Shown: positions 12,738 to 37,011 of the stretch, in pieces | Position numbering within the stretch: the first letter of the stretch is position 1 | Layout: each line of letters opens with the position of its first letter | From: an uncultured Alphaproteobacteria bacterium | GTDB taxonomy: Bacteria > Pseudomonadota > Alphaproteobacteria > HIMB59 > GCA-002718135 | Assembly (NCBI GenBank): GCA_902621305.1 | Contig: CACNLM010000002.1 | Location: forward strand, 69,812 to 133,811 | Direction of reading: 5' to 3' | DNA length: 64,000 nt | Notes under the pieces: model-generated | Seen by the model: only the letters and a program-made list of their open reading frames with translations | The model's database searches: none | Told to the model about the DNA's origin: nothing | Translations under genes and position numbers: made by a program

Positions 12738-12823
12738 ACTGTTATTTTTATACAATACACACATATAATAATAAATTGTATTATAAAATGATACTTTTAT
12801 GTATAAGAACAAATCTTTAATTA

Positions 12824-13636
12824 ATGAAATTTGAAAGTAATAAAAAATTTTACCGCACAATTTGGATTTCGGATACCCACCTAGGAACCAGTGGTTGTAA
12901 AAGCAAAATGCTTTTAGAATTCTTAGAAGAAACAGATTCGGAATATTTATTTTTAGTAGGCGACATTGTTGATGGATGGCGCATGCGTAAGAAAATGTAT
13001 TGGCCACAAGAACATAACGACGTGGTTCAAAAAGTTTTAAAGAAAGCGAAAAATGGAGCTAGGGTAGTGCTTATCCCAGGAAATCATGATGAAGTATTAA
13101 AAGATTTTACAAATTTTTCCTTTGGAGAAATTTCAATAAAAAATGAAGATACGCATCAATTAGCTGATGGAAGGAAAGTACTGATTACACACGGAGATGA
13201 ATTTGATGCTGTGATAATTAATGCGAGGTGGTTAGCCAAAGTGGGATCAGCACTTTATGAATATTTACTAAAGTTAAATAATGTATTCAATTTTATTCGA
13301 CGAAAGATGGGCTTGTCTTATTGGTCACTGTCTCAATATTTAAAAAAGAAAACTAAGCATGCAACAAACTTTATTAGTAACTTTGAGTTTGCTGTATCTG
13401 ACAGAGCTAGAAGAGAAAATGCCGATGTTGTTGTGTGCGGGCATATACATAGACCAGAAATAAAGGAATTAAATGGTGTTCTCTATTGTAATGATGGTGA
13501 CTGGATTGAAAGTTGCACAGCACTCGTTGAAGATGAAATTGGCAATTTATCAATTCTTAATTGGCCCGAAGAAAGAGAAAAATTAAAATTAATTTCTTTA
13601 GAAGAAAGACGAAAAATAAAAGAGGATGCAGCCTAA
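12824..13636 (+). CDS. plcP: LpxH-like metallophosphoesterase, PlcP-type phospholipase C candidate (copy 1)
   Basis: Calcineurin-fold motifs 'ISDTHLG', 'VGDIVDGW', 'GNHDE', 'HGDEFD', 'CGHIH'. It overlaps a GT4 glycosyltransferase, the arrangement described for the SAR11/roseobacter lipid-remodelling plcP-agt operon. Confidence 0.7.
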   Translation: MKFESNKKFYRTIWISDTHLGTSGCKSKMLLEFLEETDSEYLFLVGDIVDGWRMRKKMYWPQEHNDVVQKVLKKAKNGARVVLIPGNHDEVLKDFTNFSFGEISIKNEDTHQLADGRKVLITHGDEFDAVIINARWLAKVGSALYEYLLKLNNVFNFIRRKMGLSYWSLSQYLKKKTKHATNFISNFEFAVSDRARRENADVVVCGHIHRPEIKELNGVLYCNDGDWIESCTALVEDEIGNLSILNWPEEREKLKLISLEERRKIKEDAA

Positions 13637-14627
13637 AAAAATCGCGTTAATTAGTGATGCGTGGGTTCCTCAGGTAAATGGCGTAGTTACGACATTTCAA
13701 AGCGTTATACCTATTCTAGAAAAAAAAGGTTTTGAAATTAAAATATTACATCCTGAGATGTTTAATAATTTTAGTTATCCTAGGTACAAAGAAATAAAAA
13801 TTTCTTACAATACTAAAAAAGTTACTGAAAAATTTTTTAAAGAATTTAATCCAGATATTGTTCATATAATGACTGAAGGTCCAGTAGGTTTTGCTGGTCG
13901 TAAGTACTGCCTTAAAAATAAACTACAATACACTTCTTCCTTTCACACCCGTTTTCCTGACTACATGAAGCAAAGAGCTTTTATCCCAAAGAGATTTACA
14001 TACTCCATATTAAGAAGACTACATAGTGATTCAGAAAGAGTTCTTGTTCCATCAGTTTCAATGCTAAATGAGTTAAAAAAATATGATTTTAAAAATTTAG
14101 TAGTTTGGAATAGAGGTGTTGATACAGAATTATTTAATCCAAATAAAAGAGACACAAACAGTAAAGATAGACAACTGACTTATGTTGGTAGAGTAGCAAT
14201 TGAAAAAAATATTGAAGAATTTTTAAAACTTAAAGGAAATTATAATAAAACTGTTGTGGGTGATGGTCCCGAATTACAAAAATATATTAATAAATATCCT
14301 GAAGTAAATTTTGTCGGTGTAAAAACTGGAGATGAACTAGCAAAATATTATGCAAACGCAGATGTATTTGTCTTTCCTTCTAAAACAGACACTTTAGGAA
14401 ATGTAATACTTGAAGCATTGGCTAGTGGAACACCAATTGCTGCATATCCAGTAACCGGGCCCATAGATGTGTTAACAGATGAAAAGATTAACACTTTAGA
14501 TAATAACTTGTTACAATCAGTTAAGAAGGCACTTAAAGTAAAAAGAGTTGATTGTAGAAATTTTACTCTTAAATTAACTTGGGACAAATGTGTGAATGAA
14601 TTTTTAGAATTCATGGTAAACGTTTAG
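13626..14627 (+). CDS. agt: GT4-family glycosyltransferase, glycosyl-diacylglycerol synthase candidate (Agt, copy 1)
   Basis: GT-B fold motifs 'SDAWVPQVNGVV', 'VGDGP' and 'FPSKTDTLGNVILEALASGTPI' (EX7E-like). Overlaps plcP by 11 nt. Confidence 0.7.
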   Translation: MQPKKIALISDAWVPQVNGVVTTFQSVIPILEKKGFEIKILHPEMFNNFSYPRYKEIKISYNTKKVTEKFFKEFNPDIVHIMTEGPVGFAGRKYCLKNKLQYTSSFHTRFPDYMKQRAFIPKRFTYSILRRLHSDSERVLVPSVSMLNELKKYDFKNLVVWNRGVDTELFNPNKRDTNSKDRQLTYVGRVAIEKNIEEFLKLKGNYNKTVVGDGPELQKYINKYPEVNFVGVKTGDELAKYYANADVFVFPSKTDTLGNVILEALASGTPIAAYPVTGPIDVLTDEKINTLDNNLLQSVKKALKVKRVDCRNFTLKLTWDKCVNEFLEFMVNV

Positions 14628-19083: not shown

Positions 19084-20079
19084 TTAATTTTTTGCATTTA
19101 CAATATTTGATAGAAATTGATTTGCACATTTATCCCAAGTAAATTGCATTGCAAATTTTCTGCAATCATTTCTATCAATCTTTAAAGCTTTTTTAAGTGA
19201 TTTTTCAATATTGTTATCAAGGGTGTCAATTAATGAGTTTTTTAAAATATCTTTAGGACCTGTTACTGGGTAAGCAGCCACTGGTGTTCCAGAGGCTAAA
19301 GACTCTAAAATTACATTTCCAAATGTATCTGTTTTGGATGGGAATACCAACGCTTCAGCATTTGCATAATAATTTGCTAAGTCTTGACCTTTTTTCATCC
19401 CAACGAAAGATACATATGGATATTTGTTTTGTAGTCGTTGTTTTTCTGGACCATCTCCAACAACAATTTTATCCATCTTAGTTCTTATTTCTAAAAACGC
19501 TTCGATGTTTTTTTCTAATGAAACTCTACCAATGTAAACAATATACTTTTTCAGTCCTTTTCTTCTTTTTAAAGGATTAAATAATTCAGTATTAACTCCC
19601 CTTGACCAAATTTTAAGATTTTGAAATTGATATTTAGTTAATTCGTTACGCATAGATATTGTTGGGACCAATACATTACATGCATTTTTATGAAAATTTT
19701 TTAAAAAAGAGTACCCAATTATTTTTGGTATCATTATTCTTTGCTCTATATATTCTGGAAATCTCGTATGAAAAGAGGTTGTATATCTCAACTTATTATT
19801 CTCACAGAATTTTTTCCCCGCAATTCCAACTGGTCCTTCAGTGGCAATATGTATAACATCAGGATCATAATCACCAAAAAATTTTTCTGTTATTTTTTTT
19901 GTATTAATTGCTATTTTTATTTCCTTATACCAAGGATAACTAAAATTAGTAAACATCATTGGGTGGAGTACTTCAATTTGATACTTTTGTTTTAAAAATG
20001 GATTAATATGTAGGTATGTATTTACAACACCATTAACTTGAGGAAGCCAAGCATCGGTAATGATCGCTAATTTTTTCAA
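19084..20079 (-). CDS. GT4-family glycosyltransferase, Agt paralogue (copy 2)
   Basis: Colinear with the 13626-14627 product at roughly 60% identity by eye, with the same motifs ('TDAWLPQVNGVV', 'FPSKTDTFGNVILESLASGTPV'). Confidence 0.7.
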   Translation of the reverse strand: MKKLAIITDAWLPQVNGVVNTYLHINPFLKQKYQIEVLHPMMFTNFSYPWYKEIKIAINTKKITEKFFGDYDPDVIHIATEGPVGIAGKKFCENNKLRYTTSFHTRFPEYIEQRIMIPKIIGYSFLKNFHKNACNVLVPTISMRNELTKYQFQNLKIWSRGVNTELFNPLKRRKGLKKYIVYIGRVSLEKNIEAFLEIRTKMDKIVVGDGPEKQRLQNKYPYVSFVGMKKGQDLANYYANAEALVFPSKTDTFGNVILESLASGTPVAAYPVTGPKDILKNSLIDTLDNNIEKSLKKALKIDRNDCRKFAMQFTWDKCANQFLSNIVNAKN

Positions 20080-20882
20080 ACTAATACACTTTCTGCTAGT
20101 TTGTTATGTTTATGTTGAAAAATTTTTTCTCTTTCAATTGACCAGTCAATAAGGGATAATTGTCCCTCTTTATTTTCCACTAGCGCAGAACAACTCTCAA
20201 CCCAATCACCATCATTGCAATATAACACTCCGTTTAATTTTTTTATAACGGGCTTATGAATATGGCCGCACACAACAACATCGGCATTTGCTCTTTTAGC
20301 GCTATCAGATACGGCAAACTCAAAGTTAGAAATAAAATTCGTGGCTCTTTTTGTTTGATGTTTGAGAAATTGAGATAATGACCAATAAGATAGACCTAGT
20401 TTTCTTCTGACAAAATTTAGATAGTTATTCAACTTTAATATAAATTCGTATAGAGATGACCCAATACTTGCCAGCCATTTAGCGTTTAATATAACTGCAT
20501 CAAATTCATCACCATGTAAAACAAGGGCATTTCTTCCATCAGCTAATTTGTGTGTAAACTTATTTTTTATTGATATATTCCCTAGTGAAAAACTTGTGTA
20601 ACTTTTCACAAGTTCGTCATGATTACCTGGGATAAATATTACTTTTGTACCTTTTCTTGCTTTACGCAAAATCTTCTGGATAATGTCATTATGAGTTTGA
20701 TGCCAATAAATTTTTTTTTTCATTCTCCATGCATCAATAATATCGCCAACTAAAAATAAATATTTTGAATCTGTTGATCTCAAAAATTCAAGAAGCATTT
20801 CACTCTTGCTATTTTCTGTTCCAAGATGAAGATCAGATATCCATATAGTTCTATAATATGAAACTGATTGCTGATCTTTCAT
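20076..20882 (-). CDS. LpxH-like metallophosphoesterase, PlcP paralogue (copy 2)
   Basis: Colinear with the 12824-13636 product at roughly two-thirds identity by eye ('YRTIWISDLHLGT', 'GNHDE', 'HGDEFD', 'CGHIH'). Overlaps agt2 by 4 nt. Confidence 0.7.
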   Translation of the reverse strand: MKDQQSVSYYRTIWISDLHLGTENSKSEMLLEFLRSTDSKYLFLVGDIIDAWRMKKKIYWHQTHNDIIQKILRKARKGTKVIFIPGNHDELVKSYTSFSLGNISIKNKFTHKLADGRNALVLHGDEFDAVILNAKWLASIGSSLYEFILKLNNYLNFVRRKLGLSYWSLSQFLKHQTKRATNFISNFEFAVSDSAKRANADVVVCGHIHKPVIKKLNGVLYCNDGDWVESCSALVENKEGQLSLIDWSIEREKIFQHKHNKLAESVLV

Positions 20883-22781: not shown

Positions 22782-23444
22782 ATGTTTGGATTAAAAAGTG
22801 CATCATTATTTGGTGATACCAAAAAGCTTGAAAGAGAAATTGATGAGTTTGTTGATATTGTCTCTGAAGTGGGCTTAGTATTTAAATCGATAGTTCCAAC
22901 TTATCTCAATCATTCCGCCAATGGTAAATTTGAGGAAATGGTTGAAAAAGTTAAAGAAATGGAAAGTAAAGCCGACAAAATTACAAAAGATGTTGAGCAT
23001 ACTCTTTATGAAGAAACACTAATCCCAGATGCAAGAAGTGATGTGTTACGACTTCTAGAACACATCGACGAATTAATTGGAATGTACCAAGGAAATTGCT
23101 ATCACTTCTCTATTCAAAAACCTAATTTTCCAAAAGAATTTCATGAAGATCTTATTGAGTTAACAGAGACTGTTGTAAATTGTGTTGAGTCACTTTGTTT
23201 GACTGTCCGATCATTTTTTAGAGATATTAAATCTGTTAGAGATAATGCTCATAAAGTAACTTTTTATGAAAAAGAATCTGATATAAAATTTAGTTCACTT
23301 GCAAGAAGAATTTTTGATTCTGAATTACCTCTAGATCAAAAAATGCATCTTCGATATTTTGTAGAAAAGATTGATCGTATTTGTGATCAAGCAGAAGACA
23401 TAGCTGACGAGGTTCAAATTTACGCTATTAAACGTTCCGTTTAA
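22782..23444 (+). CDS. DUF47 / TIGR00153-family protein (PhoU-like Pit accessory protein)
   Basis: 220-aa helical protein immediately upstream of a PiT transporter, the conserved DUF47-pit pairing. C-terminal 'DRICDQAEDIADEV' resembles a PhoU repeat. Confidence 0.7.
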   Translation: MFGLKSASLFGDTKKLEREIDEFVDIVSEVGLVFKSIVPTYLNHSANGKFEEMVEKVKEMESKADKITKDVEHTLYEETLIPDARSDVLRLLEHIDELIGMYQGNCYHFSIQKPNFPKEFHEDLIELTETVVNCVESLCLTVRSFFRDIKSVRDNAHKVTFYEKESDIKFSSLARRIFDSELPLDQKMHLRYFVEKIDRICDQAEDIADEVQIYAIKRSV

Positions 23445-23450
23445 TTTTCA

Positions 23451-24503
23451 ATGGAAATTACAATTCTAATTTTTTTATTTGGTGGTCTTTTTTTAGGTTG
23501 GTCACTTGGTGCCAATGATGCAGCAAATGTTTTTGGAACTGCAGTTGGAACACGAATGGTTAGTTTCACAAGTGCAGCAATAATTTGTAGTGTCTTTGTT
23601 ATTCTAGGTGCAATTATTAGCGGAGCAGGTACAACAGAAACCTTAGGAAAGTTAGGTGCTATTAATGCATTGCCTGGTGCTTTTGCAGCATGTGTTGCTG
23701 CAGGAATATCTGTTTATTTAATGACTAAAGTTGGCTTGCCTGTTTCAACAACGCAAGCGATTGTTGGAGCAATTGTTGGTTGGAATTTATACACAGGATC
23801 TTCAACTAATCTTCAAGTTTTAATTACTATTTTAGGAACATGGATACTCTGTCCTATTATTGCAGGAGTTATTGCAATGGGTTTATTTACTTTTACAAAA
23901 AGAGTTATACTCAATAGAAAGTTACATATTCTCAGACTTGATGCCTATACAAGAACAGCTTTACTTTTAGCGGGTGCTTTTGGTGCTTATAGTTTAGGTG
24001 CAAACAATATTGCCAATGTAATGGGTGTCTTCGTACCTATATCACCGTTTACTGATGTTACTATTGGAAATTTATTTGTCTTTTCCTCAAAAGAACAATT
24101 ATTTCTGCTGGGTGGTTTAGCAATAGCTGTTGGTGTTTTTACTTACTCGAAAAGTGTTATGTTTACCGTGGGTAATGATCTCTTAAAAATGACACCAGTG
24201 GCAGCATTTATTGTTGTTATATCGCATTCTATTGTTTTATTTTTATTTGCATCCCAGGGTATAAGTGCTTTTTTACAATCTATAAATCTTCCCTCTATAC
24301 CTTTGGTACCAGTATCAAGTTCCCAAGCTGTTGTCGGCGGCGTAATTGGAATTGGTCTTTTAAAAGGAGGAAAAGAGGTTCAATGGTCAATTGCAGGTAG
24401 AATTTCTTTGGGTTGGATGACGCTACCTATAATTGCAGCTTTAATTTCTTTAATTGTTTTATTTATTCTAGAAAATATTTTTAATTTAACGGTCTCTTTT
24501 TAA
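23451..24503 (+). CDS. pit: PiT-family inorganic phosphate transporter
   Basis: Duplicated PiT signature 'GANDAANVFGTAVG' / 'GANNIANVMGVF' in a polytopic membrane protein. Confidence 0.88.
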   Translation: MEITILIFLFGGLFLGWSLGANDAANVFGTAVGTRMVSFTSAAIICSVFVILGAIISGAGTTETLGKLGAINALPGAFAACVAAGISVYLMTKVGLPVSTTQAIVGAIVGWNLYTGSSTNLQVLITILGTWILCPIIAGVIAMGLFTFTKRVILNRKLHILRLDAYTRTALLLAGAFGAYSLGANNIANVMGVFVPISPFTDVTIGNLFVFSSKEQLFLLGGLAIAVGVFTYSKSVMFTVGNDLLKMTPVAAFIVVISHSIVLFLFASQGISAFLQSINLPSIPLVPVSSSQAVVGGVIGIGLLKGGKEVQWSIAGRISLGWMTLPIIAALISLIVLFILENIFNLTVSF

Positions 24504-25024
24504 TTAACTGCTCGATAAGAAAAAATAAAATCTTCTTGGATTTTTGACTCAATAGCTCCTTTTCTTCTTGATCGTACTAGATCAATAGCTTCTTGTTTTT
24601 CATAATTAAATTCAACAAGTAAAATAGCAGCTATAGTGCCAGCTCTTCCTTTTCCTCCACGGCAATGTAAAACTATGTTTTTACCATCTATCAATTCGTT
24701 CTTTAATAAAACTTTTGTTGTTTCCCATTTATATTTAAAATCTTTATTTGGTGCTCCCATGTCATAAATGGGTAAATGGTACCAATGTAATTTATGTTCA
24801 TAAATATTTTTGACAAACGAAGTTTTATCACACAATTTTTCAAATTCGCTATCTTCAACAAAAGAAGTAATAGAACTACAATTATTATTTTTAAATATTT
24901 CTAATTCGTTTGCTAAAATTGTTTCTTCAAATAAACCATTAGAGTTAAGACCTGGGAAAGAAGTTAATATAATTTTGCCTGCAAATGACTTAGAGTCAAT
25001 AAAATCATAATTGCTAAATTGCAT
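24500..25024 (-). CDS. dual-specificity / Cys-based phosphatase (CX5R)
   Basis: 'VLHCRGGKGRAGT' P-loop and an upstream 'LPIYDMGAP' general-acid loop. Its start abuts the stop of the PhnZ-like gene with a 0-nt gap. Confidence 0.65.
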   Translation of the reverse strand: MQFSNYDFIDSKSFAGKIILTSFPGLNSNGLFEETILANELEIFKNNNCSSITSFVEDSEFEKLCDKTSFVKNIYEHKLHWYHLPIYDMGAPNKDFKYKWETTKVLLKNELIDGKNIVLHCRGGKGRAGTIAAILLVEFNYEKQEAIDLVRSRRKGAIESKIQEDFIFSYRAVN

Positions 25025-25600
25025 TTACGCTTGTTTAGCTAAAAAAGACTGTCTTGCTTCTTCTAAATAGGGGCGGAAATGTTCAACATCGGGAGTTTTT
25101 TTATCTAGAATTTTTGCTAAATCATCAAATCTTCTAAGCTCTACTGCTTCATCCATAAAAGGTTTGCTTATAAACGCATCTGCTTCTTCTTTTGTGAAAG
25201 GACCACCTTGAACTTTTAACGAAAGTTTCGATGCTTCTGATAGACTATCATAATAACCTTCTTCAACACTTGATAAATATCTTTTTGAGTCAACATGTGC
25301 TCTAATTGGTAGAATAACATCCTCACTAAAATATTTTTTTAAAAAATCAGCACCTAAATTTTCATGATGACCATCTTTCCCTTCATGAATGGGATCGCCG
25401 TCCTCATAGATAAGGTGGCCAACATCATGCAGTAATGCTGCAGCAATTGTTGGTCCTGGTAATTTATGTTTTTCAGCAAGTTCAGCACATTGGAGTGCGT
25501 GCTCAAGCTGGGTCACGTCCTCATTACCATATTGAATATCAGCACCTTTTGTTTTCAAAAGATGTAAGAGATAGTCTACAATATTTTCTTCCATTTTCAT
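25025..25600 (-). CDS. phnZ: HD-domain phosphonate oxygenase, PhnZ family
   Basis: 'QLEHALQCAELA', 'AALLHDVGH', 'HHENLGADFL', 'RAHVDSKRYL' and 'QGGPF' are colinear with the PhnZ / Phn-HD family as I remember it. Divergent from phnW. Confidence 0.75.
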   Translation of the reverse strand: MKMEENIVDYLLHLLKTKGADIQYGNEDVTQLEHALQCAELAEKHKLPGPTIAAALLHDVGHLIYEDGDPIHEGKDGHHENLGADFLKKYFSEDVILPIRAHVDSKRYLSSVEEGYYDSLSEASKLSLKVQGGPFTKEEADAFISKPFMDEAVELRRFDDLAKILDKKTPDVEHFRPYLEEARQSFLAKQA

Positions 25601-25688: not shown

Positions 25689-26786
25689 ATGGATAAAAAA
25701 TTATTAACCCCTGGTCCTCTCACGACATCGATGTCAACAAAAGAGGCTATGCTTCATGATTGGGGTTCGAGGGATACAAAATTTATTGATCTCAATGCAT
25801 CAATTAGAGATTCCCTTGTTAAATTAATAGACGGTGAAGATAAATATCAATGTGTTCCAATGCAGGGAAGTGGAACTTTTGCCGTAGAGTCGATGGTAAG
25901 CTCTCTTACTCAAAAAGATTCTAAAATTCTGATTCTGATCAATGGTGCTTACGGACAAAGAATGAAAAAAATGTGCACATATTTAGGGAGAGATTTTATT
26001 GAATATGAAGTTGCTGAACATGAAATACATGACATCAATAAAATTGAAGACTTAATTGATAGCAACAACTTAACACACGTCTTTGCTGTATATTGTGAAA
26101 CAACATCGGGTATTTTAAATCCTATTGAAGACATTGCAAAATTGGTTGAGGGGAAAAATTTATCGTTATTCATCGATGCAATGAGTGCCTTTGGTGCATT
26201 ACCCTTAAGTTCTAAAACAATTACTTTTGATGCTGTAGCCGCTTCATCAAACAAATGCTTAGAAGGTGTGCCAGGTGTTGGTTTCATTCTTGTTAAAAAT
26301 GAAGTTATTCAAAATGCAAAAGGCAATAGTCACTCACTAAGTCTAGACTTGTATGATCAATGGCAAGCAATGGAAAAAAATAAACAATGGCGATTTACAC
26401 CTCCAACACACGTATTAGCTGCATTCAACCAAGCTATTGAAGAACATAAAGAACAAGGCGGTGTAAAAGGAAGAGGTAAAAGATATAAAAAAAATTGTGA
26501 AATTATTTGTAATGGAATGAAAGAGTTGGGATTTGAGCAACTACTTCCTGATAATTTACAAGCACCAATTATTATTACGTTTAAACAACCTAATGATCCT
26601 AAATTTAACTTTGAGAAATTTTATAATGCTCTTAGTGAAAAAGATTTTTTAATTTATCCAGGAAAACTAACAGTGGCAGAAACTTTTAGAATTGGGTGTA
26701 TTGGTAATTTAGATGAACAAGACATGATGGATACAATAAAAGCTGTAAAAGAAGTCGTTACTGAATTGGGATTAACATTAAACTAA
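25689..26786 (+). CDS. phnW: 2-aminoethylphosphonate--pyruvate transaminase
   Basis: N-terminus 'LLTPGPLTTSMSTKEAMLHDWGSRD', class V aminotransferase fold with 'SSNKCLEG' (PLP Lys). 365 aa. Confidence 0.85.
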   Translation: MDKKLLTPGPLTTSMSTKEAMLHDWGSRDTKFIDLNASIRDSLVKLIDGEDKYQCVPMQGSGTFAVESMVSSLTQKDSKILILINGAYGQRMKKMCTYLGRDFIEYEVAEHEIHDINKIEDLIDSNNLTHVFAVYCETTSGILNPIEDIAKLVEGKNLSLFIDAMSAFGALPLSSKTITFDAVAASSNKCLEGVPGVGFILVKNEVIQNAKGNSHSLSLDLYDQWQAMEKNKQWRFTPPTHVLAAFNQAIEEHKEQGGVKGRGKRYKKNCEIICNGMKELGFEQLLPDNLQAPIIITFKQPNDPKFNFEKFYNALSEKDFLIYPGKLTVAETFRIGCIGNLDEQDMMDTIKAVKEVVTELGLTLN

Positions 26787-26793
26787 CAAAATA

Positions 26794-27426
26794 ATGACAA
26801 AAGAAATTGAAATACCATTAGTTAAAGCAACAAATGAAAATCTTAAAGGATACGGATATTTAATCGATAGTTTTGAAAATAGTGATATTGAAATTGTTAC
26901 TTGGCCAAAACAAGGATGGCGCGACATAGAAGAGGGAACTGGTAATGAAGGTGGAACTACCGAAGGTTCTTTTGATACCTGGTGGCAAGGTGATGTGCTT
27001 TATGGACAAAATAATGCTGTCCAACATAAGAGCGATTATGAAGTAGATGGAAAATATATACTGGGTTATGCCAATAACCCCGATCAAGAATTGCAAAAAG
27101 ATAAATATTCAGATCCAACAAAAATATTTCTATGGCATGCAAATTATCATCCTGATGGAGGTCAGCTTTTTTTTCCTGCAGAAAATAAACCATTTATTTG
27201 TCCTTTAGCTTTACCAACAGACGACATCGAACCAGAACATTTCAAAGCATTTTATTGTGATGGATCAAAAGGTTTGTATATTCATCCAAACATTTGGCAT
27301 GAAGGGGTGTTTCCAGTTAAAGAAAAACAATCATTTCATGGAAAACAAGGTAAAGTACATGCAAGAGTTAGCATCGACTTAAAAGAGGAATTTAATAAGT
27401 ATGTTTATTTTAAAACTGCGATCTAA
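26794..27426 (+). CDS. ureidoglycolate lyase (AllA)-like cupin-fold protein, function unknown in this context
   Basis: 'NLKGYGYLI' near the N-terminus. 'GGQLFFP...FKAFYCDGSKGLYIHPNIWHEGVFP' parallels the AllA 'GTQAFIP...LRAF..G.QGVNYHRNVWHHP' pattern. Lies 7 nt after phnW. Confidence 0.5.
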   Translation: MTKEIEIPLVKATNENLKGYGYLIDSFENSDIEIVTWPKQGWRDIEEGTGNEGGTTEGSFDTWWQGDVLYGQNNAVQHKSDYEVDGKYILGYANNPDQELQKDKYSDPTKIFLWHANYHPDGGQLFFPAENKPFICPLALPTDDIEPEHFKAFYCDGSKGLYIHPNIWHEGVFPVKEKQSFHGKQGKVHARVSIDLKEEFNKYVYFKTAI

Positions 27427-28239: not shown

Positions 28240-29346
28240 TTATTTTTTTTCAATTACAAATATTTCATTGTTAAAATAAAGGCCTTTATTTTTAGCAACA
28301 ATATTTTGAACTACTTTTTCGTAATTTTTTGTTTTTTCTACCTTAATTACTTTATCATCATCCATTTGATTGACATATATGGAGGCATTCCAAGCAGAAA
28401 AAACTAATGATGTCGCTATACCTCCACTGATTTCTGTTGGTAGAGCTCTCAATTTACATTTAATAATTTTTTTTTCTCCAAAAGATAAACTACTTAATAA
28501 ATCTTTATCTAAATTTTTCTTAAGATAAGAAATGATACTATTTCCAAGAGAAGGAAAAGGGTCCTCTTTTGGCCAAATTTTACGAATTATTTCATTAGCA
28601 GGATCTTTTCCTGAAGCATGAATAGTTAATAATTTCCCTTTTGATTTTAACGCTCGAATCATTGGTTCGATGACATATTTTGATTTCTTTTCTGCTGAAA
28701 TTCTTGAACGATAAGGCTGTGAAGCAATAATAAGATCAAATTTATTATCTGATTTTTTTTTGGTTGGTATTAATTCATTAACATTAAATTCTTGATCTTC
28801 ACGGTAAATAACCATGACTGAAGGCTCCTTATAAGTATGGTTACCTGACTTTTTATTAATTTCTATATTCCATTTTTTTTCTAAAAATTCATTTTGTTTT
28901 CTTAATTGTTGGGCAAATTCAAGAGAGGTGTCACCTTTTAATTTAATAATATTCCAATTAATTTTTTTCTGTTTAACGTCATTTTTTGATTTTAGGTTTG
29001 CGGCTTCAGCGTAGTGTAAATTTGAAATTACAAAAACAGTATTCTTATGCTCAACAAACCTATCGGGTAATTTTTCCAAACCTAATCTTACATCTTCAAT
29101 ACTTATTTCTTTTGTGCAAACTAATAGAGGTACGTTAGGCCTGGCCTCGTGGCACTGACGCATAACATTCATAAGTAAGGAACCATCACCCATACCAGCA
29201 TCAAATATTTTTATACCAGGTTTTTGCGGTTTAATTTTATTTACGTGAGGGCGTATCGCATCAGCAATTTGATTTTTTTCATTTGTTGTTGTGACAAATA
29301 ATAAGTATTTTTGTCTGTTATCATAAAACCTGAAATTTTTTTTCAT
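28240..29346 (-). CDS. putative class I SAM-dependent methyltransferase-like protein, unknown function
   Basis: 'KIFDAGMGDGSL' resembles SAM motif I; later 'FDLIIASQPY' and 'GKLLTIH'. A long insertion separates the motifs. I recognise no specific family. Confidence 0.4.
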   Translation of the reverse strand: MKKNFRFYDNRQKYLLFVTTTNEKNQIADAIRPHVNKIKPQKPGIKIFDAGMGDGSLLMNVMRQCHEARPNVPLLVCTKEISIEDVRLGLEKLPDRFVEHKNTVFVISNLHYAEAANLKSKNDVKQKKINWNIIKLKGDTSLEFAQQLRKQNEFLEKKWNIEINKKSGNHTYKEPSVMVIYREDQEFNVNELIPTKKKSDNKFDLIIASQPYRSRISAEKKSKYVIEPMIRALKSKGKLLTIHASGKDPANEIIRKIWPKEDPFPSLGNSIISYLKKNLDKDLLSSLSFGEKKIIKCKLRALPTEISGGIATSLVFSAWNASIYVNQMDDDKVIKVEKTKNYEKVVQNIVAKNKGLYFNNEIFVIEKK

Positions 29347-29348
29347 TA

Positions 29349-30461
29349 CTAATAAAGTCCCATTGATTTAGCAGAAGAGATGAAGGCTTCTTTATTGCCA
29401 ATAAAGTTTTTACCTCGTTCTCCTAAAAACGCATCATCTACTATATTATTCCATTCTTGAACAGGAACTTTTATTTCATTTAAGTTAAGAGGAACCTCTA
29501 AAGAACGCATAAATTCACTCAGATGATTTGCGGCATTCTCTAGGTTATCGTTAAAAATTAGTTTTAGTCTTTCTTCAGCTACACTATCAATTCCAACCAT
29601 ACTTTTAGTAATCATGGGTAATGTAAATGAGCAAGCAATACCATGTTGAATGCCGTAATTGAGCGTCACAGGGTATGATAGATTGTGCGCAATAGCAGTT
29701 TTTGTATTGGAAAACGCTAAGCCAGCATGAACGCATGCCAGTGCAATGTTTGAACGTAATTCAACGCTTCTTAAATCTTTAGCGAGAAGTGGTAAATTTT
29801 CTAATACTAATTTTGATGCTTGTATTGCATGAGAAGCAGAAATTGGGTTTGCATTAATATTCCAAATACTTTCCATTGAATGAGAGAGAGCATCTAAACC
29901 TGTTGAAATGGTCAAGCCTAAAGGCTTATCAACCATAATTGATGGATCGATAATTGCTTTTTCTGCATAAAGAGATTTATGCGCCAAAGATAATTTATTG
30001 TTTTTTTCTTTATCCCAAATTGTGGCCCAACACGTAAGCTCACTTGATGTTCCTGAAGTTGTAGGTATTGCAATAATCTTGATTGGATTTTCGACTCTTG
30101 GACTTTTCTTATTGCGAACGAAATCTGTTAGATATTCTTGTTTATCTTTAAAAGCAGCAATTGCTTTAGCTGTGTCTGTAACAGAGCCACCACCTATAGC
30201 TAAAATATAATCTACCGATTCATTGATTGAAGAAAATTTTTTTTGTAGCTCTAAAATATCCTTATAATCTGGATTAGGTTGAACATCCGTCATAATGGAT
30301 AGTGGTGGATTTGAAGAAGATTTTAATTCATCGCTATATTTTTTAAAAATTTCTTCTGGATGAGTGATTATGATGTAGTTCTTATTTTTAAGAGCATCAT
30401 GTACTTCTTTAAATCTATTTTCTCCAAAGATAATTTCAACAGGATTAAAATAATTCCACAT
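29349..30461 (-). CDS. iron-containing (group III) alcohol dehydrogenase, phosphonate-cluster associated
   Basis: 'AIGGGSVTDTAK' and the His cluster 'DALSHSMES...HNLSYPV..HG', typical of Fe-ADH. The neighbourhood recalls the phosphonoacetaldehyde reductase-type Fe-ADH clade. Confidence 0.7.
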   Translation of the reverse strand: MWNYFNPVEIIFGENRFKEVHDALKNKNYIIITHPEEIFKKYSDELKSSSNPPLSIMTDVQPNPDYKDILELQKKFSSINESVDYILAIGGGSVTDTAKAIAAFKDKQEYLTDFVRNKKSPRVENPIKIIAIPTTSGTSSELTCWATIWDKEKNNKLSLAHKSLYAEKAIIDPSIMVDKPLGLTISTGLDALSHSMESIWNINANPISASHAIQASKLVLENLPLLAKDLRSVELRSNIALACVHAGLAFSNTKTAIAHNLSYPVTLNYGIQHGIACSFTLPMITKSMVGIDSVAEERLKLIFNDNLENAANHLSEFMRSLEVPLNLNEIKVPVQEWNNIVDDAFLGERGKNFIGNKEAFISSAKSMGLY

Positions 30462-30465
30462 TACA

Positions 30466-31545
30466 TTAAATTGATTTTGCCGCTTTAGTTAAAATTGTCA
30501 TTTTCTCAATTGCTTGTTCTCGAGTAAAGAAACCTAAACCACAATCTGGTGCAGCTATTAAGCGGTGTTCATCAATATGTTCAAGTGAATCTTTGATACG
30601 AACTCTTACTTCTTCAACAGATTCCATTCTGCTTTTTGCAATATCAATAAATCCAAAAATTACTTTTGTTTTAGTAAATTTTTCTAAAAGATTTAAATCA
30701 TTATGCCTATGTGAATCTTCTAAAGATACTTCATCAATAGTTGAATCATCTACAAGTGATGCAATTCTATCATAAGCATCTAAATCAGCCTTTTTATAAC
30801 CTTCTGAATCTAATGAATTAGGATAACCACAACAAATATGGCAAACACGTTGCACTTCTTTAGGTATACCATGCATCATTCTTTCTAAATTTTCCATACC
30901 ATATGAATGAGCTTCATCGGGCTTTCTAGCAAATACTGGTTCATCAATTTGAATATACTGACAACCTGCATCTACAAGTGCTTTAACTTCTTTATTAAGG
31001 GCTAATGCTAAATCAAAACCAAGTTTTTTCATGTCATCATAGTAGTTGTTAGCAATTGAATCTGTTATTGTCATTGGTCCAGGTAGGGTAATTTTAACTG
31101 GATTTTTTGTAAATTGTTGTGCACTCTTCCAGTCTAGATGCATACGTATTTCTTTACTTGAAATCGGTGCAACAATAGTTGGAAGATCAGCTTCGAACGC
31201 GCCTTGTCTTACTGACTTATGTGTAACTTCTTTAAAACTTACTCCATTTAAAAATCGACATTGATATAATACGTAACTCTCACGTCTGACTTCTCCATCT
31301 GTTGGAACATCAATACCCGCATTTACTTGATCAGTTATAACTTCTTTAATTGCTGCTAAAAATAATTTTTCAGCATCTGCACCTGCAGACTCTAATGCTT
31401 TTTCATATGCGCCAGGTGACCAATTTGATAATAATCCTTTTGACGCTTTTCTCTCTTCTTCTGATTTTGTCCCTAAAAACCAATCTTGAATAGGTGTTTG
31501 TTTCGGTTTTGGATAAGCACCTATTGTAGTTGTTTTAAGAGGCAT
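30466..31545 (-). CDS. MetE C-terminal-domain-like Zn-dependent alkyl/methyl-transferase (Meth_synt_2 family)
   Basis: 'TTTIGAYPKP' N-terminus. Zn-ligand pattern 'VCHICCGYP', 'EVSLED', 'IAAPDCGLGF' matches the MetE His/Cys/Glu/Cys set. At 359 aa it is the single-domain form. Confidence 0.7.
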   Translation of the reverse strand: MPLKTTTIGAYPKPKQTPIQDWFLGTKSEEERKASKGLLSNWSPGAYEKALESAGADAEKLFLAAIKEVITDQVNAGIDVPTDGEVRRESYVLYQCRFLNGVSFKEVTHKSVRQGAFEADLPTIVAPISSKEIRMHLDWKSAQQFTKNPVKITLPGPMTITDSIANNYYDDMKKLGFDLALALNKEVKALVDAGCQYIQIDEPVFARKPDEAHSYGMENLERMMHGIPKEVQRVCHICCGYPNSLDSEGYKKADLDAYDRIASLVDDSTIDEVSLEDSHRHNDLNLLEKFTKTKVIFGFIDIAKSRMESVEEVRVRIKDSLEHIDEHRLIAAPDCGLGFFTREQAIEKMTILTKAAKSI

Positions 31546-31632: not shown

Positions 31633-32886
31633 TTACATAAGATCGTTTATTTCTTCCATCATTTCTTCTTGGAGATCACCCATATCATCAGCGTCGCCTG
31701 TAGCAATTTCTTCTGTGTAATCATAGATTACCTGCGTAACAGCTAATCCATTTTCTCCAGGATATGCAAACCAATCTGCAAGAAGTGGAAGTTGTTCAAC
31801 TGCAGTAAGTTTATTAGGGTTTTTACTATAGAAATCACCTAATAATTCATTCGCTGCTTTGTTTGGTGGAACATATCCAGTTGTTTCAGCAACTAATGCA
31901 GCACCGATACCTGATGTAATGAACTTTAAGAAAGTCCATGCAGCATCAACTCTTGCTGGATCATCAGATGTAGACACTAACATTGCAGCGTTTCCACCTG
32001 CTGGTAATCTTGCAGGTGTTCCATTGTTAACTCCAGCCATTCCAGGGAATGGTGCAGTCTTTAAAACAAAGTCTGCCTTTGCAGCATTAACTGAACCCAA
32101 GCTTGAAGTAGACCAGAACATCATACCAATTGTACCTGCGTTAAACGCAGCTTGACCATCAGCAATTGAATAGTTTGGCATATTACATCCGCTCATGATT
32201 GCTTTCATTTGCTCTAACGTTGCAAGTCCTGCATCACCACCCATATTTACAGCTCCATCTTTAACCATTGGAACATTCTGAGTGTGCATTAATGCTTGGT
32301 GGAACCAGTTACCTGTGATGTTCCAACCAAAGTATAGAGTTCCTTTACCTGCTGCTTCCAATTTATTACATGCTGCAATAACTTCGTCCCAGTTAGTTGG
32401 AATACTATTTACACCTGCTTCAGCTAATAAATCCATGTTATAATATCCAACTGGCGTTGATACAGAAAATGGTAATCCATAAACTTCACCACCAAATGTT
32501 GAAAGACTTAACATAGCAGAATGGTAACCATCTTTTTCAAAAGCAGCTTCTTTTGCAATAAATGGCTCTAAAGACTTAGCAATACCTTTGTCAACTAGAG
32601 GTGCTTGTCTGTTAAGACCTTGCATTGTTACATCTGGTAAATTACCTGAAGTAGACTCTCTGAAGATTGTTGCAGTTGCATCCTCATAGTTTTCATAAGT
32701 TGCTCTAAATTTAACTTGAATATCTGGATGTGCTTTTTCAAACTCTGGCATAATAGCTTGGAAAGTTACATCGAATAATCCTGAATAAGGATAAGCAACT
32801 TCTATTTCAATAGACTTAGCTGAATTAACAGAACCATAAAAACCAAAAGCTAATACGGCTGCAAATCCTGTAATTAATTTTTTCAT
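31633..32886 (-). CDS. ABC transporter substrate-binding protein (family 1, UgpB-like); candidate aminoethylphosphonate-binding protein by context
   Basis: Signal peptide and a 417-aa family-1 SBP architecture. A strong SD (GGAGGGA) precedes the start. G+C is markedly higher than in neighbours (a hand count of one 60-nt line at 32101 gave about 45%). Confidence 0.7.
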   Translation of the reverse strand: MKKLITGFAAVLAFGFYGSVNSAKSIEIEVAYPYSGLFDVTFQAIMPEFEKAHPDIQVKFRATYENYEDATATIFRESTSGNLPDVTMQGLNRQAPLVDKGIAKSLEPFIAKEAAFEKDGYHSAMLSLSTFGGEVYGLPFSVSTPVGYYNMDLLAEAGVNSIPTNWDEVIAACNKLEAAGKGTLYFGWNITGNWFHQALMHTQNVPMVKDGAVNMGGDAGLATLEQMKAIMSGCNMPNYSIADGQAAFNAGTIGMMFWSTSSLGSVNAAKADFVLKTAPFPGMAGVNNGTPARLPAGGNAAMLVSTSDDPARVDAAWTFLKFITSGIGAALVAETTGYVPPNKAANELLGDFYSKNPNKLTAVEQLPLLADWFAYPGENGLAVTQVIYDYTEEIATGDADDMGDLQEEMMEEINDLM

Positions 32887-33020: not shown

Positions 33021-34463
33021 TTACCAAGGTAGCGAAAAGGTTTTTACATTAGTAAAACTTTTCATTGCTTCAATAACACCCTCTTTGTAACCAAGACCTG
33101 AATCTTTAATTCCTCCAAAAGGAGACATTTCAATTCTATAACCTGGAACCTCCCAAATATTTACCGTACCAACATTTAAACCTTGAATATATTTTTTTGC
33201 TCGCATGAAGTTATTTGTACATACACCAGATGATAATCCGAATGCGGTTGAATTAGATATTTTCATTACAGCTTCATCGTCATTAGGCACACGAATGATT
33301 GGGATAACTGGACCAAATGTTTCTTCTAAAACTAATTCACTTTTAGGATCAACATGATCTACAACTATTGGAGGTAACAAAGCACCCTTTCTTCCAGGGT
33401 GATATAAAATTTTTGCGCCGTCTTCTTCAGCCATAGAAACTCTTTTATCAAAAAGTTCTGCAGCTTGAGCATTAACAACTGTACCTAAGTCTGTTTCCAT
33501 ATTCATAGGATCACCAAATTTAATTTTCTTTGCACGCTCAAGAGCCATTTCAACAAATTGATCTGCAATGGATTCTTGAACCAATATTCTTTTAACAGCT
33601 GTACAACGTTGACCAGAATTTTTCGTTGCTCCCGTAACAGCTAGTTCAACAGCTTTTTTAAGATCATCACCATCTAAGTCATTTAAAACAATTAATGGAT
33701 CATTACCACCAAGCTCAAGAACAGTTCTTTTGTATCCAGCTTGTTCAGCAATTAATTTTCCTACACCCACACTGCCTGTAAAAGTAATTAGATCAATGTT
33801 TGGATTTTTGATCATTTCTGATCCAATGTCTTGAGGCCATCCAGTTACAACTGAAAACATTTCGGGTGGCAGGCCTGCTTCATATAAAACATCGGCGAGT
33901 ACCATTGCTGTTAAAGGTGTTAATTCTGTTTGTTTACATACAGTACAATTATTAGTTGCAATTGAAGGTGCAATTTTATGCGCTACCATATTCAAAGGAT
34001 GATTAAATGGGGTGATTGCTGAGATTGCCGTTAAAGGTTCTCTTATGGTAAATATTTTTCTGGCTTTTCCATGTGGAGTTAAATCACAAGAAAATATTTC
34101 TCCATCATCATGAATACAAAGTTGAGCCGTTAATGAAAATACATCGAAAGCTCTTCCTACTTCGTATAAAGAATCTTGTTTTGAGATACCAAGTTCTAAA
34201 GTAATAATATCAGAAATTTCTTCTTTTCTTTTAACAAGTACTTCTGCAGCAGTTTGAAGAATTTTTTGTCTCTCATATCTTGTAAGTTTAGGTTGGTAAT
34301 TTGCAGCAATATCTAGAGCCTTTCTTGCATGCTCTGCGGTACCGGCTGGAACCGTTCCGATTACTTCACCTGTAAAAGGGTACTCAACATTTATTGTTTT
34401 ATCTGAAGTAACTTTTTCTCCAGCAATACGCATTGCTTCATTAATCATTTTTTTGTGCATCAT
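33021..34463 (-). CDS. phnY: NAD(P)-dependent aldehyde dehydrogenase, phosphonoacetaldehyde dehydrogenase candidate
   Basis: ALDH motifs 'ELGGNDP' and 'NSGQRCTA' (catalytic Cys), plus 'EETFGPV'. Its start overlaps the phnA stop by 4 nt. Confidence 0.75.
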
Positions 34464-35701
34464 AGGGCTCCATTTATTGCATAATAAAATGCATCATAGT
34501 TATATAATTGTTTGCTAGTATCTAAGTTTTGTAATTTTAAATTTGATATGAATGGCACTTCTCTTTCATGGAGTCCTCCATGAGAACGTAAAGGTTCATT
34601 TAATCCAGAAAGATTGTGTTTATCTTCCGATGAACCAATAGTCATAAATTCTGAAGACATACATATAATATCTCCCATTCTATCAGGAGGTAAATTGTAA
34701 GTAGAACATCCTTCATCTTTTGTTAAAACAACTTCTATATCTTTTATTTCTTTAATAGCATTTACAACTGAATCTACCTTGCTCTTGTCTTCTAAATAAA
34801 TTGTTGCAAAAGAACCAAGTGAACCATGATGAACAACATATGGATCTGTAATTGGTAGGATGACTTTAGCCATGTTTGGTTCAAATTTTTTATCTAAATA
34901 ATCTTGTAAAAATATTGCATTAGGTGAACCATCTTCTTTTGATTTTGGTTTCATTCCGTGATCTGCTGTGATGATTATAGAAACATTCTCCTTATTTAAA
35001 AGTCCAATATATTTATCAAACATTGCATAAAATTTATTTGCTGTTTCATTTCCCGGTGCATATTTGTGTTGAATATAATCCGTAGTCGATAAATACATAA
35101 TATTTGGTTTAAACTCCTCAAGAAGTTTTACACCTGCAGCCATTACAAATTCAGAAAGTCCTTCAGAATATACTTCTGGCACTGGCATCCCCAACCAATC
35201 GTTTACATTATCTATACCATTGAGATCTTTTGTTGCTTGATCAGATTTTTCAGCAGAAAAACAAATAGCTCTCTCATCATCAAAACTTAATCCGTTTCCT
35301 AAAAGTGTTCTCAACTTGTCTTTTGCAGTAACAAGAGCAATTTTAGAACCAGAATTGTAAAATTTTTCAAAAATAGTTGGTGCTCGCATATATTTTGGGT
35401 CATTCATCATTACTTCTTCACCCGTCTCAGGTGTATAAAAGAAGTTTCCGCATATACCGTGTACAGAACTTGGTTGGCCTGTTACAATCGAAATGTTATT
35501 TGGATTTGTAAAACTTGGAATAGCGCTGTGAACAAGTAGGTTTTCACCACTTGCAATTAATTTATCAAGATTTGGTGTAAGATTAGATTTTGATGCTTCT
35601 TCGAGATACTCTTTTTGACTACCATCAAGGCATATAACAATAGCAGTTTTTGAGAAAGAGCTTGGATATTCTCTTTTATTAATTTCTAAATTATCGGACA
35701 C
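34460..35701 (-). CDS. phnA: phosphonoacetate hydrolase
   Basis: Long colinear matches to the remembered Pseudomonas PhnA: 'IVICLDG', '[28 protein letters not shown]', 'VTAKDKLR', '[15 protein letters not shown]', 'ITADHGM', '[16 protein letters not shown]', 'PLRSHGG'. Confidence 0.88.
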
Positions 35702-35877: not shown

Positions 35878-37011
35878 GTGGGGACAATATCACTTAAAAA
35901 TATTTCAAAGTCATTTGGGTCTACACAAGTACTTAATAATTTGAATGTTGATATAAACGATGGAGAATTCTTAACGTTAGTTGGTCCATCTGGTTGTGGT
36001 AAATCTACATTACTTAGAATAATTGCAGGATTGGAACAGCAGACTTCAGGTGATGTATTAATAGATAATAAAAATGTAAATAGAGTTAGAGCCAGTGAAA
36101 GAGATTTGGCAATGGTCTTCCAATCATATGCTCTTTATCCTCATCTCACAGTAAGAAGAAATTTAGAAACTCCATTAAGACTTAGAGATTATAATGGATT
36201 TGAAAGACTACCCTTGATTGGTAATTTTTCTCCAAGCAAAAAAGAGAAAACAGAATCTATTAATCAATTAGTAAATAAAACTTCTGAAACTCTAAAAATT
36301 TCAGAACTATTAGATAGAAAACCAGGACAATTGTCAGGTGGTCAAAGACAAAGAGTTGCTCTTGGTCGTGCCATGGTTAGGGAGCCTGTTGCCTTTTTAA
36401 TGGATGAACCTCTTTCAAATTTAGATGCGGCTCTGAGAGTTCACATGCGATCTGAATTATCTGAACTTCATAATTCACTTAAAACTACTTTTGTGTACGT
36501 AACACATGATCAAGCAGAAGCGTTAACTATGTCTTCTAGAATGGCTGTGATGATTGATGGAAATTTATTACAACTAGATACACCTCAAGAAGTATATGAC
36601 AATCCTTCCTCATTAAGTGTAGCTCAATTTGTTGGAAGTCCAAAAATAAATATATTTAAAGGAACTGCGGACTCTAGTGGGACGATAAGTTTTCTCAACG
36701 TTAATCTAAAAAGAAAAAGTTCTGAAAGTAATACAGATTTACATATTGGTATTCGACCAGAACATTTAGAAATTACAAATGAAAGAAATGAAAATACATT
36801 TAGTGGAACAGTTGCATATAGAGAAAATTTAGGTTCAGATATTTTCTTTCATGTAAATATTGAAGACGGTTCAAATAAAATAATTGTAAGAGGCTTACCA
36901 CAATTTACACACCAAATTTCAAATGGTTCTAGTGTAAATATAAAAAGAGTTTCAGATAAAGCATTACTATTTAATCAAGCAGGAATGAGGGTTCAATTTA
37001 CTAATGCATAA
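35878..37011 (+). CDS. ABC transporter ATP-binding protein (MalK/UgpC-like, with C-terminal regulatory domain)
   Basis: Walker A 'GPSGCGKST', 'LSGGQRQR', 'LMDEPLSNLD'. GTG start is preceded by AGGGGGA. Confidence 0.85.
   Translation: MGTISLKNISKSFGSTQVLNNLNVDINDGEFLTLVGPSGCGKSTLLRIIAGLEQQTSGDVLIDNKNVNRVRASERDLAMVFQSYALYPHLTVRRNLETPLRLRDYNGFERLPLIGNFSPSKKEKTESINQLVNKTSETLKISELLDRKPGQLSGGQRQRVALGRAMVREPVAFLMDEPLSNLDAALRVHMRSELSELHNSLKTTFVYVTHDQAEALTMSSRMAVMIDGNLLQLDTPQEVYDNPSSLSVAQFVGSPKINIFKGTADSSGTISFLNVNLKRKSSESNTDLHIGIRPEHLEITNERNENTFSGTVAYRENLGSDIFFHVNIEDGSNKIIVRGLPQFTHQISNGSSVNIKRVSDKALLFNQAGMRVQFTNA

Follow-up and report, generated by a model that had tools for sequence, protein, structure and literature searches.

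A predicted PhnZ-type oxygenase beside the phnWAY genes

The analysis of a 64-kb stretch of DNA from an uncultured Alphaproteobacteria bacterium (contig CACNLM010000002.1; the whole stretch is called the window) reveals an HD-domain protein of the PhnZ/TmpB family whose gene lies divergent from phnW and is followed directly by the gene of a CX5R Cys phosphatase. On balance, though with no great assurance, we favor a reading in which the HD protein cleaves phosphonates that are already 1-hydroxylated, beside a PhnW-PhnY-PhnA route, with the phosphatase as a co-expressed scavenging or regulatory enzyme specific to the Pelagibacterales (SAR11). The HD protein would take 1-hydroxyphosphonates and cleave their C-P bond with O2, yielding phosphate and an acid (glycine or formate). 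Its likeliest substrate would be (R)-1-hydroxy-2-aminoethylphosphonate (R-HAEP) from seawater or from phosphonolipid or glycan head groups, with hydroxymethylphosphonate also possible. No hydroxylase would be needed because the substrate would already carry its 1-hydroxyl, and the HD protein may form an ancillary branch, filling the job of PbfA in other clusters for 2-aminoethylphosphonate (AEP). The CX5R protein would be a metal-independent phosphomonoesterase that SAR11 has added to the HD transcript, co-regulated and phosphorus-scavenging or regulatory rather than an obligate partner of the oxygenase.

Support for this reading comes from the phosphonate genes of the window, where phnW, phnY, and phnA are genuine (above the cutoffs of their curated models) while a PbfA-like gene is absent. 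All three lie within 10 kb of the HD gene, and the PhnW-PhnY-PhnA route for AEP is complete. Of the 65 window open reading frames (ORFs) of at least 120 aa, 62 were scanned with Pfam (the other three are 138-185 aa long) and gave no class-III (PbfA-like) aminotransferase, and no C-P lyase was found in the window. A preliminary description, made from the sequence alone, had placed the HD and phosphatase genes at 24500-25600; these coordinates are correct, with the HD gene at 25025-25600 and the phosphatase gene at 24500-25024, both on the minus strand, and all the motifs it quoted (QLEHALQCA, LLHDVGH, HVDSKRYL, QGGP, and HCRGGKGRAGT) are present in the translations. The divergence of the HD gene from phnW, also described there, holds as well, with a spacer of 88 bp, and phnW reaches 511 bits with the AEP-pyruvate transaminase model of NCBIfam (cutoff 296). 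The central features are the following.

24500..25024, minus strand: CX5R Cys phosphatase (PTP-SAK/DSP fold), 174 aa; Pfam PTP-SAK, 48 bits
25025..25600, minus strand: HD-domain protein of the PhnZ/TmpB family (Phn-HD clade), 191 aa; Pfam HD, 34 bits
25601..25688, no strand: divergent intergenic spacer between the HD gene and phnW, 88 bp; presumed promoters
25689..26786, plus strand: phnW, 2-aminoethylphosphonate-pyruvate transaminase; NF010006, 511 bits (cutoff 296), and TIGR02326, 459 bits (cutoff 401)
33021..34463, minus strand: phnY, phosphonoacetaldehyde dehydrogenase; TIGR03250, 799 bits (cutoff 636)
34460..35701, minus strand: phnA, phosphonoacetate hydrolase; TIGR02335, 468 bits (cutoff 408)

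The PhnZ-type assignment of the HD protein was confirmed by full-length structure matches, namely TmpB (6NPA, E = 2e-32, residues 6-180) and PhnZ (4MLM, E = 2e-29, residues 8-182), and by a complete ligand set. In an alignment of 33 HD homologues (SAR11 and six other genera), the di-iron ligands H34, H58, D59, H79, H102, and D159 (H34, H58, D59, H80, H104, and D161 in PhnZ numbering) are all present and invariant, which rules out the incomplete set that the preliminary description had allowed for. The YxxE substrate-gating loop is conserved (Y24 invariant, E27 in at least 90% of the homologues), as are the phosphonate-binding residues K106, S124, Q131, and R156 (K108, S126, Q133, and R158 in PhnZ), which are invariant; the position of PhnZ T129 is Ser in the window protein. 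By family, the protein is a mixed-valent di-iron oxygenase of the PhnZ/TmpB type, with its cofactor and C-P cleavage predicted, and its chemistry is probably that of PhnZ and TmpB, an O2-dependent C-P cleavage of a 1-hydroxyphosphonate.

Within the family, the protein falls under all three equivalog cutoffs, scoring 202.1 bits on TIGR03276 (cutoff 214.6), 155 on the TmpB model NF049941, and 151 on the HMP-dioxygenase PhnZ1 model NF052439 (cutoffs 300 for both). The nearest model is thus TIGR03276, "phosphonate degradation HD-domain oxygenase" (Phn-HD). A neighbor-joining tree groups the SAR11 HD proteins with the Nostoc and Variovorax proteins so annotated (46% identity), and PhnZ (4MLM) and TmpB form separate branches at 37-39% identity to the window protein.

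The window itself is a SAR11 phosphate-starvation island, as its gene content (~31% G+C DNA) and a scan of 80 related single-cell genomes indicate. Most of these genomes are titled "uncultured Alphaproteobacteria," and two are named Pelagibacteraceae/Pelagibacterales; their HD proteins are 73-99% identical to that of the window, and the counts of gene order given below come from close relatives and do not represent independent events. Their loci were examined over ±10 kb around the HD gene, against 64 kb for the window. The island comprises pstSCAB-phoU-phoB-phoR, two PlcP-like/glycosyltransferase pairs, ppx, ppk, arsC, PhoU_div with PHO4, and a phosphonate block of phnW, phnY, phnA, a Fe-alcohol dehydrogenase, a MetE-like protein, a GpdQ-like diesterase, an AllA-like cupin, a 368-aa orphan, and an UgpB-like ABC importer.

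Absence of a neighboring hydroxylase

PhnZ-family di-iron oxygenases cleave the C-P bond of 1-hydroxy-2-aminoethylphosphonate (HAEP), whose hydroxyl normally comes from a 2-oxoglutarate (2OG) dioxygenase, PhnY*, or TmpA for the trimethylated analogue. The preliminary description had recognized no 2OG-dioxygenase ORF in the window, and the searches agree. The Pfam scans gave no PhyH, TauD, or 2OG-FeII family among the 62 ORFs, and phmmer with five 2OG-dioxygenase seeds taken from annotated PhnZ-family neighborhoods (a PhyH and a 2OG oxygenase from a Dietzia plasmid, two TmpA-like proteins, and one TauD) gave nothing at E ≤ 1 among six-frame ORFs of at least 70 aa from the window and 94 related loci (±10 kb). 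Likewise, tblastn with a TmpA-like query gave no match among the 80 genomes.

The same holds for the relatives of the HD protein in other lineages. The Nostoc relative (pNsp_b) is flanked by C-P lyase genes and the Variovorax relative (SRS16 plasmid) lies 3' of phnCDE, both without a dioxygenase; the Asticcacaulis relative faces a pair of FAD oxidoreductase and phnX, again without one; and those of Novosphingobium and Hymenobacter have neither phosphonate genes nor a dioxygenase adjacent, their neighbors being phospholipase C, transporters, and outer-membrane receptors. An adjacent dioxygenase (TauD/BBOX-like, or PhyH with HD) was seen only for HD proteins on other branches. Members of this clade are therefore generally without a 2OG-dioxygenase neighbor, and the absence of a hydroxylase is typical rather than anomalous.

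This arrangement has precedent in the literature. In a survey of 19,425 genomes, Zangelmi et al. (2021) counted phnZ homologues in 24 of 75 phnWAY and in 15 of 1186 phnWX clusters, with pbfA absent in every case, and just seven phnY*Z clusters; they read the phnZ homologue as a separate means of processing natural R-HAEP (PMC8154272). Reports that marine phnZ outnumbers phnY* date back to 2010-2012, with GOS abundances, published in 2012, of 9.4% for phnZ and 1.6% for phnY* (PMC3266647). Lockwood et al. counted phnZ as the most abundant marine C-P-cleaving gene, with Pelagibacterales contributing 45% of its marine reference sequences (PMC9381506), and Murphy et al. found only the PhnY*Z clade to be AEP-specific, and rare (PMC8316502). 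A PhnZ without PhnY* beside phnWAY is thus a described arrangement, and a natural 1-hydroxyphosphonate is its published explanation. The preliminary description, which had presented the missing hydroxylase as an anomaly, overstated the case, since the HD protein groups with the partner-less Phn-HD clade and phnWAY/phnZ clusters have been published, as has the excess of phnZ. Among the three explanations offered there, a naturally 1-hydroxylated substrate is the best supported, having already been proposed for phnWAY clusters with phnZ; a distant hydroxylase and another local supplier are kept as rivals.

Conservation of the HD, phosphatase, and phnW genes

The gene order around the HD gene was compared across the 80 genomes and further metagenome contigs, for which the remaining features of the locus are needed.

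22782..24503, plus strand: PhoU_div (DUF47) and PHO4 (Pit-type phosphate transporter), convergent with the phosphatase gene; Pfam
26794..27426, plus strand: AllA (ureidoglycolate lyase)-like cupin, 210 aa; PF04115, 42 bits
27435..28235, plus strand: GpdQ/SpdA-like metallophosphodiesterase; Metallophos, 62 bits; SpdA model, 174 bits, under its cutoff
28240..29346, minus strand: 368-aa conserved protein without family assignment; only a sub-threshold methyltransferase match
29349..30461, minus strand: phosphonate-associated Fe-alcohol dehydrogenase (2-hydroxyethylphosphonate <-> phosphonoacetaldehyde type); TIGR03405, 362 bits (cutoff 424), and Fe-ADH Pfam
31633..32886, minus strand: UgpB-like ABC substrate-binding protein; its ATPase and two permeases at 35878-38853 (plus strand)

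A phosphatase gene lies within 5 kb downstream of the HD gene in all 80 genomes, and it is the next gene in 77. In the window, no nucleotide lies between the HD stop codon and the phosphatase start, as had been noted (...GCG TAA ATG CAA..., stop at 25027-25025, start at 25024-25022), and the two genes are separated by the stop codon only in 66 of the 80 genomes. Several gene pairs overlap or abut in this streamlined genome, so the abutment by itself is weak evidence of coupling; the conservation of the pair is better evidence. In three genomes and in two metagenome contigs (L008 and L109), an ABC importer, of the PhnS2/T2/U2 type in the contigs, stands between the two genes; there the phosphatase gene comes after that of the permease, its convergence with PHO4 unchanged. 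The convergent spacing of phosphatase and PHO4 is at most 7 nt in 70 of the 80 genomes, and the same adjacency recurs in diverse contigs.

On the other side, phnW is divergent from the HD gene in 79 of the 80 genomes, followed by the cupin in 78, and the 88-bp spacer is conserved among close relatives. Outside SAR11, a chemoreceptor-encoding contig (L111, 42% G+C) has the HD, phnW, and cupin genes in the same arrangement, with products 72%, 80%, and 71% identical, and no phosphatase gene after the HD gene; L102 (45% G+C) starts inside phnW and from there on shows this type of locus. SAR11 (~30% GC) and a chemoreceptor-bearing lineage of 42-45% GC thus share the HD | phnW-cupin triad at 71-80% identity. 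The cupin always comes after phnW, and further examples of it lie at 8178-8819 of L111 and 10001-10639 of L099. The laterally shared unit is this triad, and the phosphatase is a SAR11 addition, being absent from the other lineage. The coupling of HD protein and phosphatase that the preliminary description had drawn attention to is therefore real as a linkage; as the pairing is SAR11-specific and positionally separable, it does not in itself establish a direct biochemical coupling.

Several variants of the locus are found in SAR11-like contigs. Six contigs (L002-L007) pair HD and phosphatase genes with PhnS2/T2/U2 aminophosphonate ABC transporters and have no phnW nearby. In two of these (L002, 2769-6767; L005, 2-880), two PhnS2 (AepX-type) binding-protein genes flank the HD-phosphatase pair, with PhnT2/U2 in addition, and the second paralogue might have a different aminophosphonate such as HAEP as its ligand. 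In two others (L109, 9556-9954; L110, 5173-6048), the divergent neighbor of the HD gene is not phnW but a choline-kinase/APH-family kinase gene (GntI-like, 153 bits), with a phage-type integrase nearby and PhnS2/T2/U2 and the phosphatase gene downstream. For the spacer itself, a promoter and terminator scan was uninformative in this AT-rich DNA, and a conserved Pho-box-like motif (TTCTAATAAGTTAA) was discarded, with 36 matches in the window against 42 expected from shuffles.

Some of these observations, and others from the literature, weigh against an HD protein that acts on natural 1-hydroxyphosphonates. The activity of its clade is a predicted one. Little is known of the occurrence of HAEP (PMC12366243), and R-HAEP is not known to have been measured in seawater. 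The characterized AepX is highly AEP-specific (PMC8316502), and the transporters adjoining the HD-phosphatase pair may import AEP rather than HAEP. The hydroxylase search covered the 64-kb window and ±10 kb of the relatives. Moreover, the linkage of HD and phosphatase in 80 of 80 genomes, together with the laterally shared triad, hints at functional links outside this explanation.

Other sources of a hydroxylated substrate

An alternative that we regard as unlikely is that the cupin acts on an intermediate derived from AEP or HAEP, as an oxygenase, a hydratase/lyase, or an S-to-R HAEP epimerase, and so feeds the HD protein. The triad is present in 78 of the 80 SAR11 loci and is shared with the phosphatase-free lineage at the identities given above, and the cupin has seven invariant residues (H115, H119, D121, Q124, H164, H169, and H189), of which D121 creates an HxD motif not found in E. 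coli AllA. However, its homology is to ureidoglycolate lyase only, a non-oxygenase; eight SAR11 contigs (L002-L008 and L109) have the HD-phosphatase pair with no phnW-cupin nearby; the Nostoc and Variovorax relatives are without such a cupin; and the AlphaFold2 (AF2) model is poor (pLDDT 52). Its PDB matches were AllA structures only, also with a profile search. An assignment as a HEPD/MpnS/HppE-like oxygenase was dropped, as the profile search gave AllA alone and the model is too poor for a fold search. The cupin nevertheless stands as a candidate new ancillary enzyme of aminophosphonate catabolism.

The canonical two-step route, in which the HD protein cleaves a product that a distant 2OG dioxygenase of the PhnY*/TmpA type has made by hydroxylating AEP, methylphosphonate, or trimethyl-AEP, appears rather improbable. 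It draws on the extent of the DNA examined, which was the 64-kb window and ±10 kb of the relatives, and on a TauD-family gene that lies 4.2 kb from the 72%-identical HD gene of L111. That gene, however, matches no curated family and lies beyond the opposite-strand phnW operon, on the far side from the HD gene. Furthermore, there is no dioxygenase in the window or the 94 loci, clade relatives in other phyla are also partner-less, the characterized pairs are always adjacent, and marine phnY* is ~6-fold rarer than phnZ (PMC3266647).

A broader proposal, to which we give about the same low weight, places the SAR11 "phnZ" in a hydroxylase-independent route whose 1-hydroxyphosphonate is either unmasked by the phosphatase or made or epimerized by the cupin (with PhnW); were it true, the island would mineralize a class of marine phosphonates not yet recognized. 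The part of this proposal that concerns the phosphatase is taken up below.

The Cys phosphatase

The description of the neighboring protein as a Cys phosphatase of the DSP type with a CX5R signature is borne out by its P-loop and its PTP fold. Its best sequence matches are SsoPTP and the PRL phosphatases, and its AF2 model (pLDDT 91.8, pTM 0.88) retrieves KAP, PRL-1/2/3, Tk-PTP, and SsoPTP in Foldseek with a probability of 1.0 and TM scores of 0.68-0.78. Across 34 sequences, the P-loop H120-C121-R-G-G-K-G-R127 has H, C, G123, G124, G126, and R127 invariant, as are the general-acid D88 and the Q-loop Q163, which align to "PIPDGG" and "QTYEQE" of SsoPTP. The P-loop Lys125 (position X4) is found in 33 of the 34 sequences; a Lys at this site is as in phosphatases of polyanionic substrates (by comparison with PTEN/VSP). 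Position 128, directly after the P-loop Arg, is Ala in the window protein and 26 of 34 homologues and Ser in 8 of 34, a Ser or Thr at this point being a mark of fast hydrolysis of the phosphoenzyme. There is no signal peptide, and the clade is isolated, with seven representative clusters at E ≤ 1e-30 among 1.84 billion. As predicted from its residues and modeled fold, the protein is very likely an active, cytoplasmic phosphomonoesterase. Its co-transcription with the HD gene and Pho regulation are inferred.

That this phosphatase unmasks the 1-hydroxyl of a 1-O-phosphorylated or esterified hydroxyphosphonate, freeing one phosphate before the HD protein frees the second phosphorus, seems very unlikely. 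The idea gains from the co-occurrence with the HD gene in 80 of 80 genomes, mostly as abutting genes, from minimal SAR11 modules that consist of transporter, HD, and phosphatase only, from the near-invariance of Lys125, and from the choline-kinase-like kinase divergent from the HD gene in L109 and L110. We know of no natural 1-O-phosphorylated or 1-O-esterified hydroxyphosphonate of this sort. The phosphatase also keeps its place beside PHO4 when a transporter is inserted before it, is absent from the non-SAR11 triad and from all other HD contexts examined, and is not fused to an HD domain in any of the best 150 representative clusters. An apparent phosphatase-HD fusion in a metagenome gene call (P0364) was rejected as an assembly chimera because it ends in the adaptor-derived LSLIHISEPTRPR.

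The PRL phosphocysteine state modulates CNNM, and a slow, PRL-like regulator whose phosphocysteine state modulates the adjacent PHO4/PhoU_div transporter is the least probable of the alternatives: PRL-1/2/3 and KAP are among the top structural matches, Ala128 occurs in 26 of 34 sequences as in PRLs, and the gene converges on PHO4 at a spacing of ≤7 nt in 70 of 80 genomes, with the same adjacency in diverse contigs, yet Ser128 occurs in 8 of 34, both the general acid and the Q-loop are preserved, genes in convergent orientation do not share a transcript, and the ordinary active phosphatases SsoPTP and Tk-PTP match equally well. In the window, the phosphatase and PHO4 genes overlap by 4 bp at their 3' ends (24500-24503), leaving no room for terminators. 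As for a link between a SAR11 DSP and phosphonates, our literature search found only a mention of LMW-PTP (Wzb/ArsC-type) in HIMB59 islands.

Comparison with known systems

The closest published counterpart is the phnWAY cluster with phnZ (PMC8154272), which likewise combines phnW, phnY, and phnA with a PhnZ-family HD protein, has neither phnY* nor pbfA, and was proposed to degrade R-HAEP separately. In the window, unlike those clusters, the HD gene and phnW diverge, the CX5R phosphatase comes after the HD gene, the cupin and the GpdQ-like diesterase come after phnW, and the whole lies inside a SAR11 Pho island. The TIGR03276 Phn-HD proteins of Nostoc and Variovorax are the closest annotated relatives (46%), with the same clade, ligand set, and lack of a 2OG partner, whereas their genes sit in C-P lyase or phnCDE operons and the window has no C-P lyase. 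With PhnY*/PhnZ (HF130_AEPn_1; 4MLM), TmpA/TmpB (Leisingera; 6NPA), and Gimesia PhnY*/PhnZ1, the HD protein shares the HD fold, the six-ligand di-iron site, the YxxE loop, and the phosphonate-binding residues, but it differs in its 37-39% identity, sub-cutoff scores, separate branch, and lack of an adjacent hydroxylase in the window.

PbfA, an (R)-HAEP ammonia-lyase, offers a functional parallel to the role proposed for the HD protein, in that it is an ancillary enzyme that lets an AEP cluster use R-HAEP, and it is mutually exclusive with phnZ homologues (PMC8154272). It is unrelated in fold and chemistry, being a pyridoxal-phosphate lyase rather than a di-iron oxygenase, and the HD route would need O2 and yield glycine rather than phosphonoacetaldehyde. 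The phosphatase resembles SsoPTP, Tk-PTP, PRL/PTP4A, and KAP in its HCX5R P-loop, Asp general acid, Q-loop, and ~150-175-aa single-domain PTP fold; it is set apart by its 19-30% identity, its isolated SAR11 clade, the X4 Lys, and its setting in a phosphonate/phosphate island. As far as our literature searches reached, the conserved SAR11 phosphatase, and the cupin that travels with phnW and the HD gene, are undescribed accessories.

These findings bear on the interpretation of the abundant marine "phnZ" signal, a point on which published surveys disagree: phnZ has been counted as the most abundant marine C-P-cleaving gene (PMC9381506), whereas true AEP-specific PhnY*Z was found to be rare (PMC8316502). 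The SAR11 gene of the window belongs to the partner-less type, and "AEP oxidation" is therefore probably a misreading of it. Identification of the true HD substrate, be it R-HAEP, hydroxymethylphosphonate, or another, would change what metagenomes imply about marine phosphonate turnover, and the conserved phosphatase, cupin, and GpdQ-like genes are candidate new ancillary enzymes of phosphonate catabolism.

Other genes of the island

The phnW operon ends in the GpdQ/Rv0805-like diesterase, which the gene of the 368-aa protein meets in convergent orientation; in most of the 80 SAR11 loci, both keep their positions. The best PDB matches of the diesterase are GpdQ (2zo9/3d03) and Rv0805, and it could release AEP or HAEP from phosphonate esters. 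The Fe-alcohol dehydrogenase was considered as a PbfF HAEP racemase and set aside, as PbfF belongs to a different family, pfam02826 (PMC12366243).

Two paralogous pairs of a PlcP-like metallophosphoesterase and a GT4 glycosyltransferase, at 12824-14627 (plus strand) and 19084-20882 (minus strand), are inverted relative to each other (69% and 61% identity) and flank MIP-ppx-His_Phos-ppk; this looks like a duplicated lipid-remodeling module. A SET-domain ORF at 12237-13007 (minus strand) is listed at 256 aa with GTG as its start codon and shares 184 nt with the PlcP-like gene. Its orthologues in related contigs are only 159-166 aa long, which makes it probable that translation begins further downstream and that the overlap is an ORF-calling artifact. 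A DUF1800 and DUF1501 pair at 56786-59370 (minus strand) also occurs downstream of TmpA/TmpB-like genes on a Phyllobacterium plasmid (L098, 8281-10549), a recurrence that is possibly a coincidence. Finally, a MetE-like "methionine synthase II" protein sits with the Fe-alcohol dehydrogenase (29349-31545, minus strand), and a MetE-like gene (L105, 197-1348) also stands beside the PhyH-HD pair on the Dietzia plasmid, which suggests a recurrent link of MetE-like genes to phosphonate genes.

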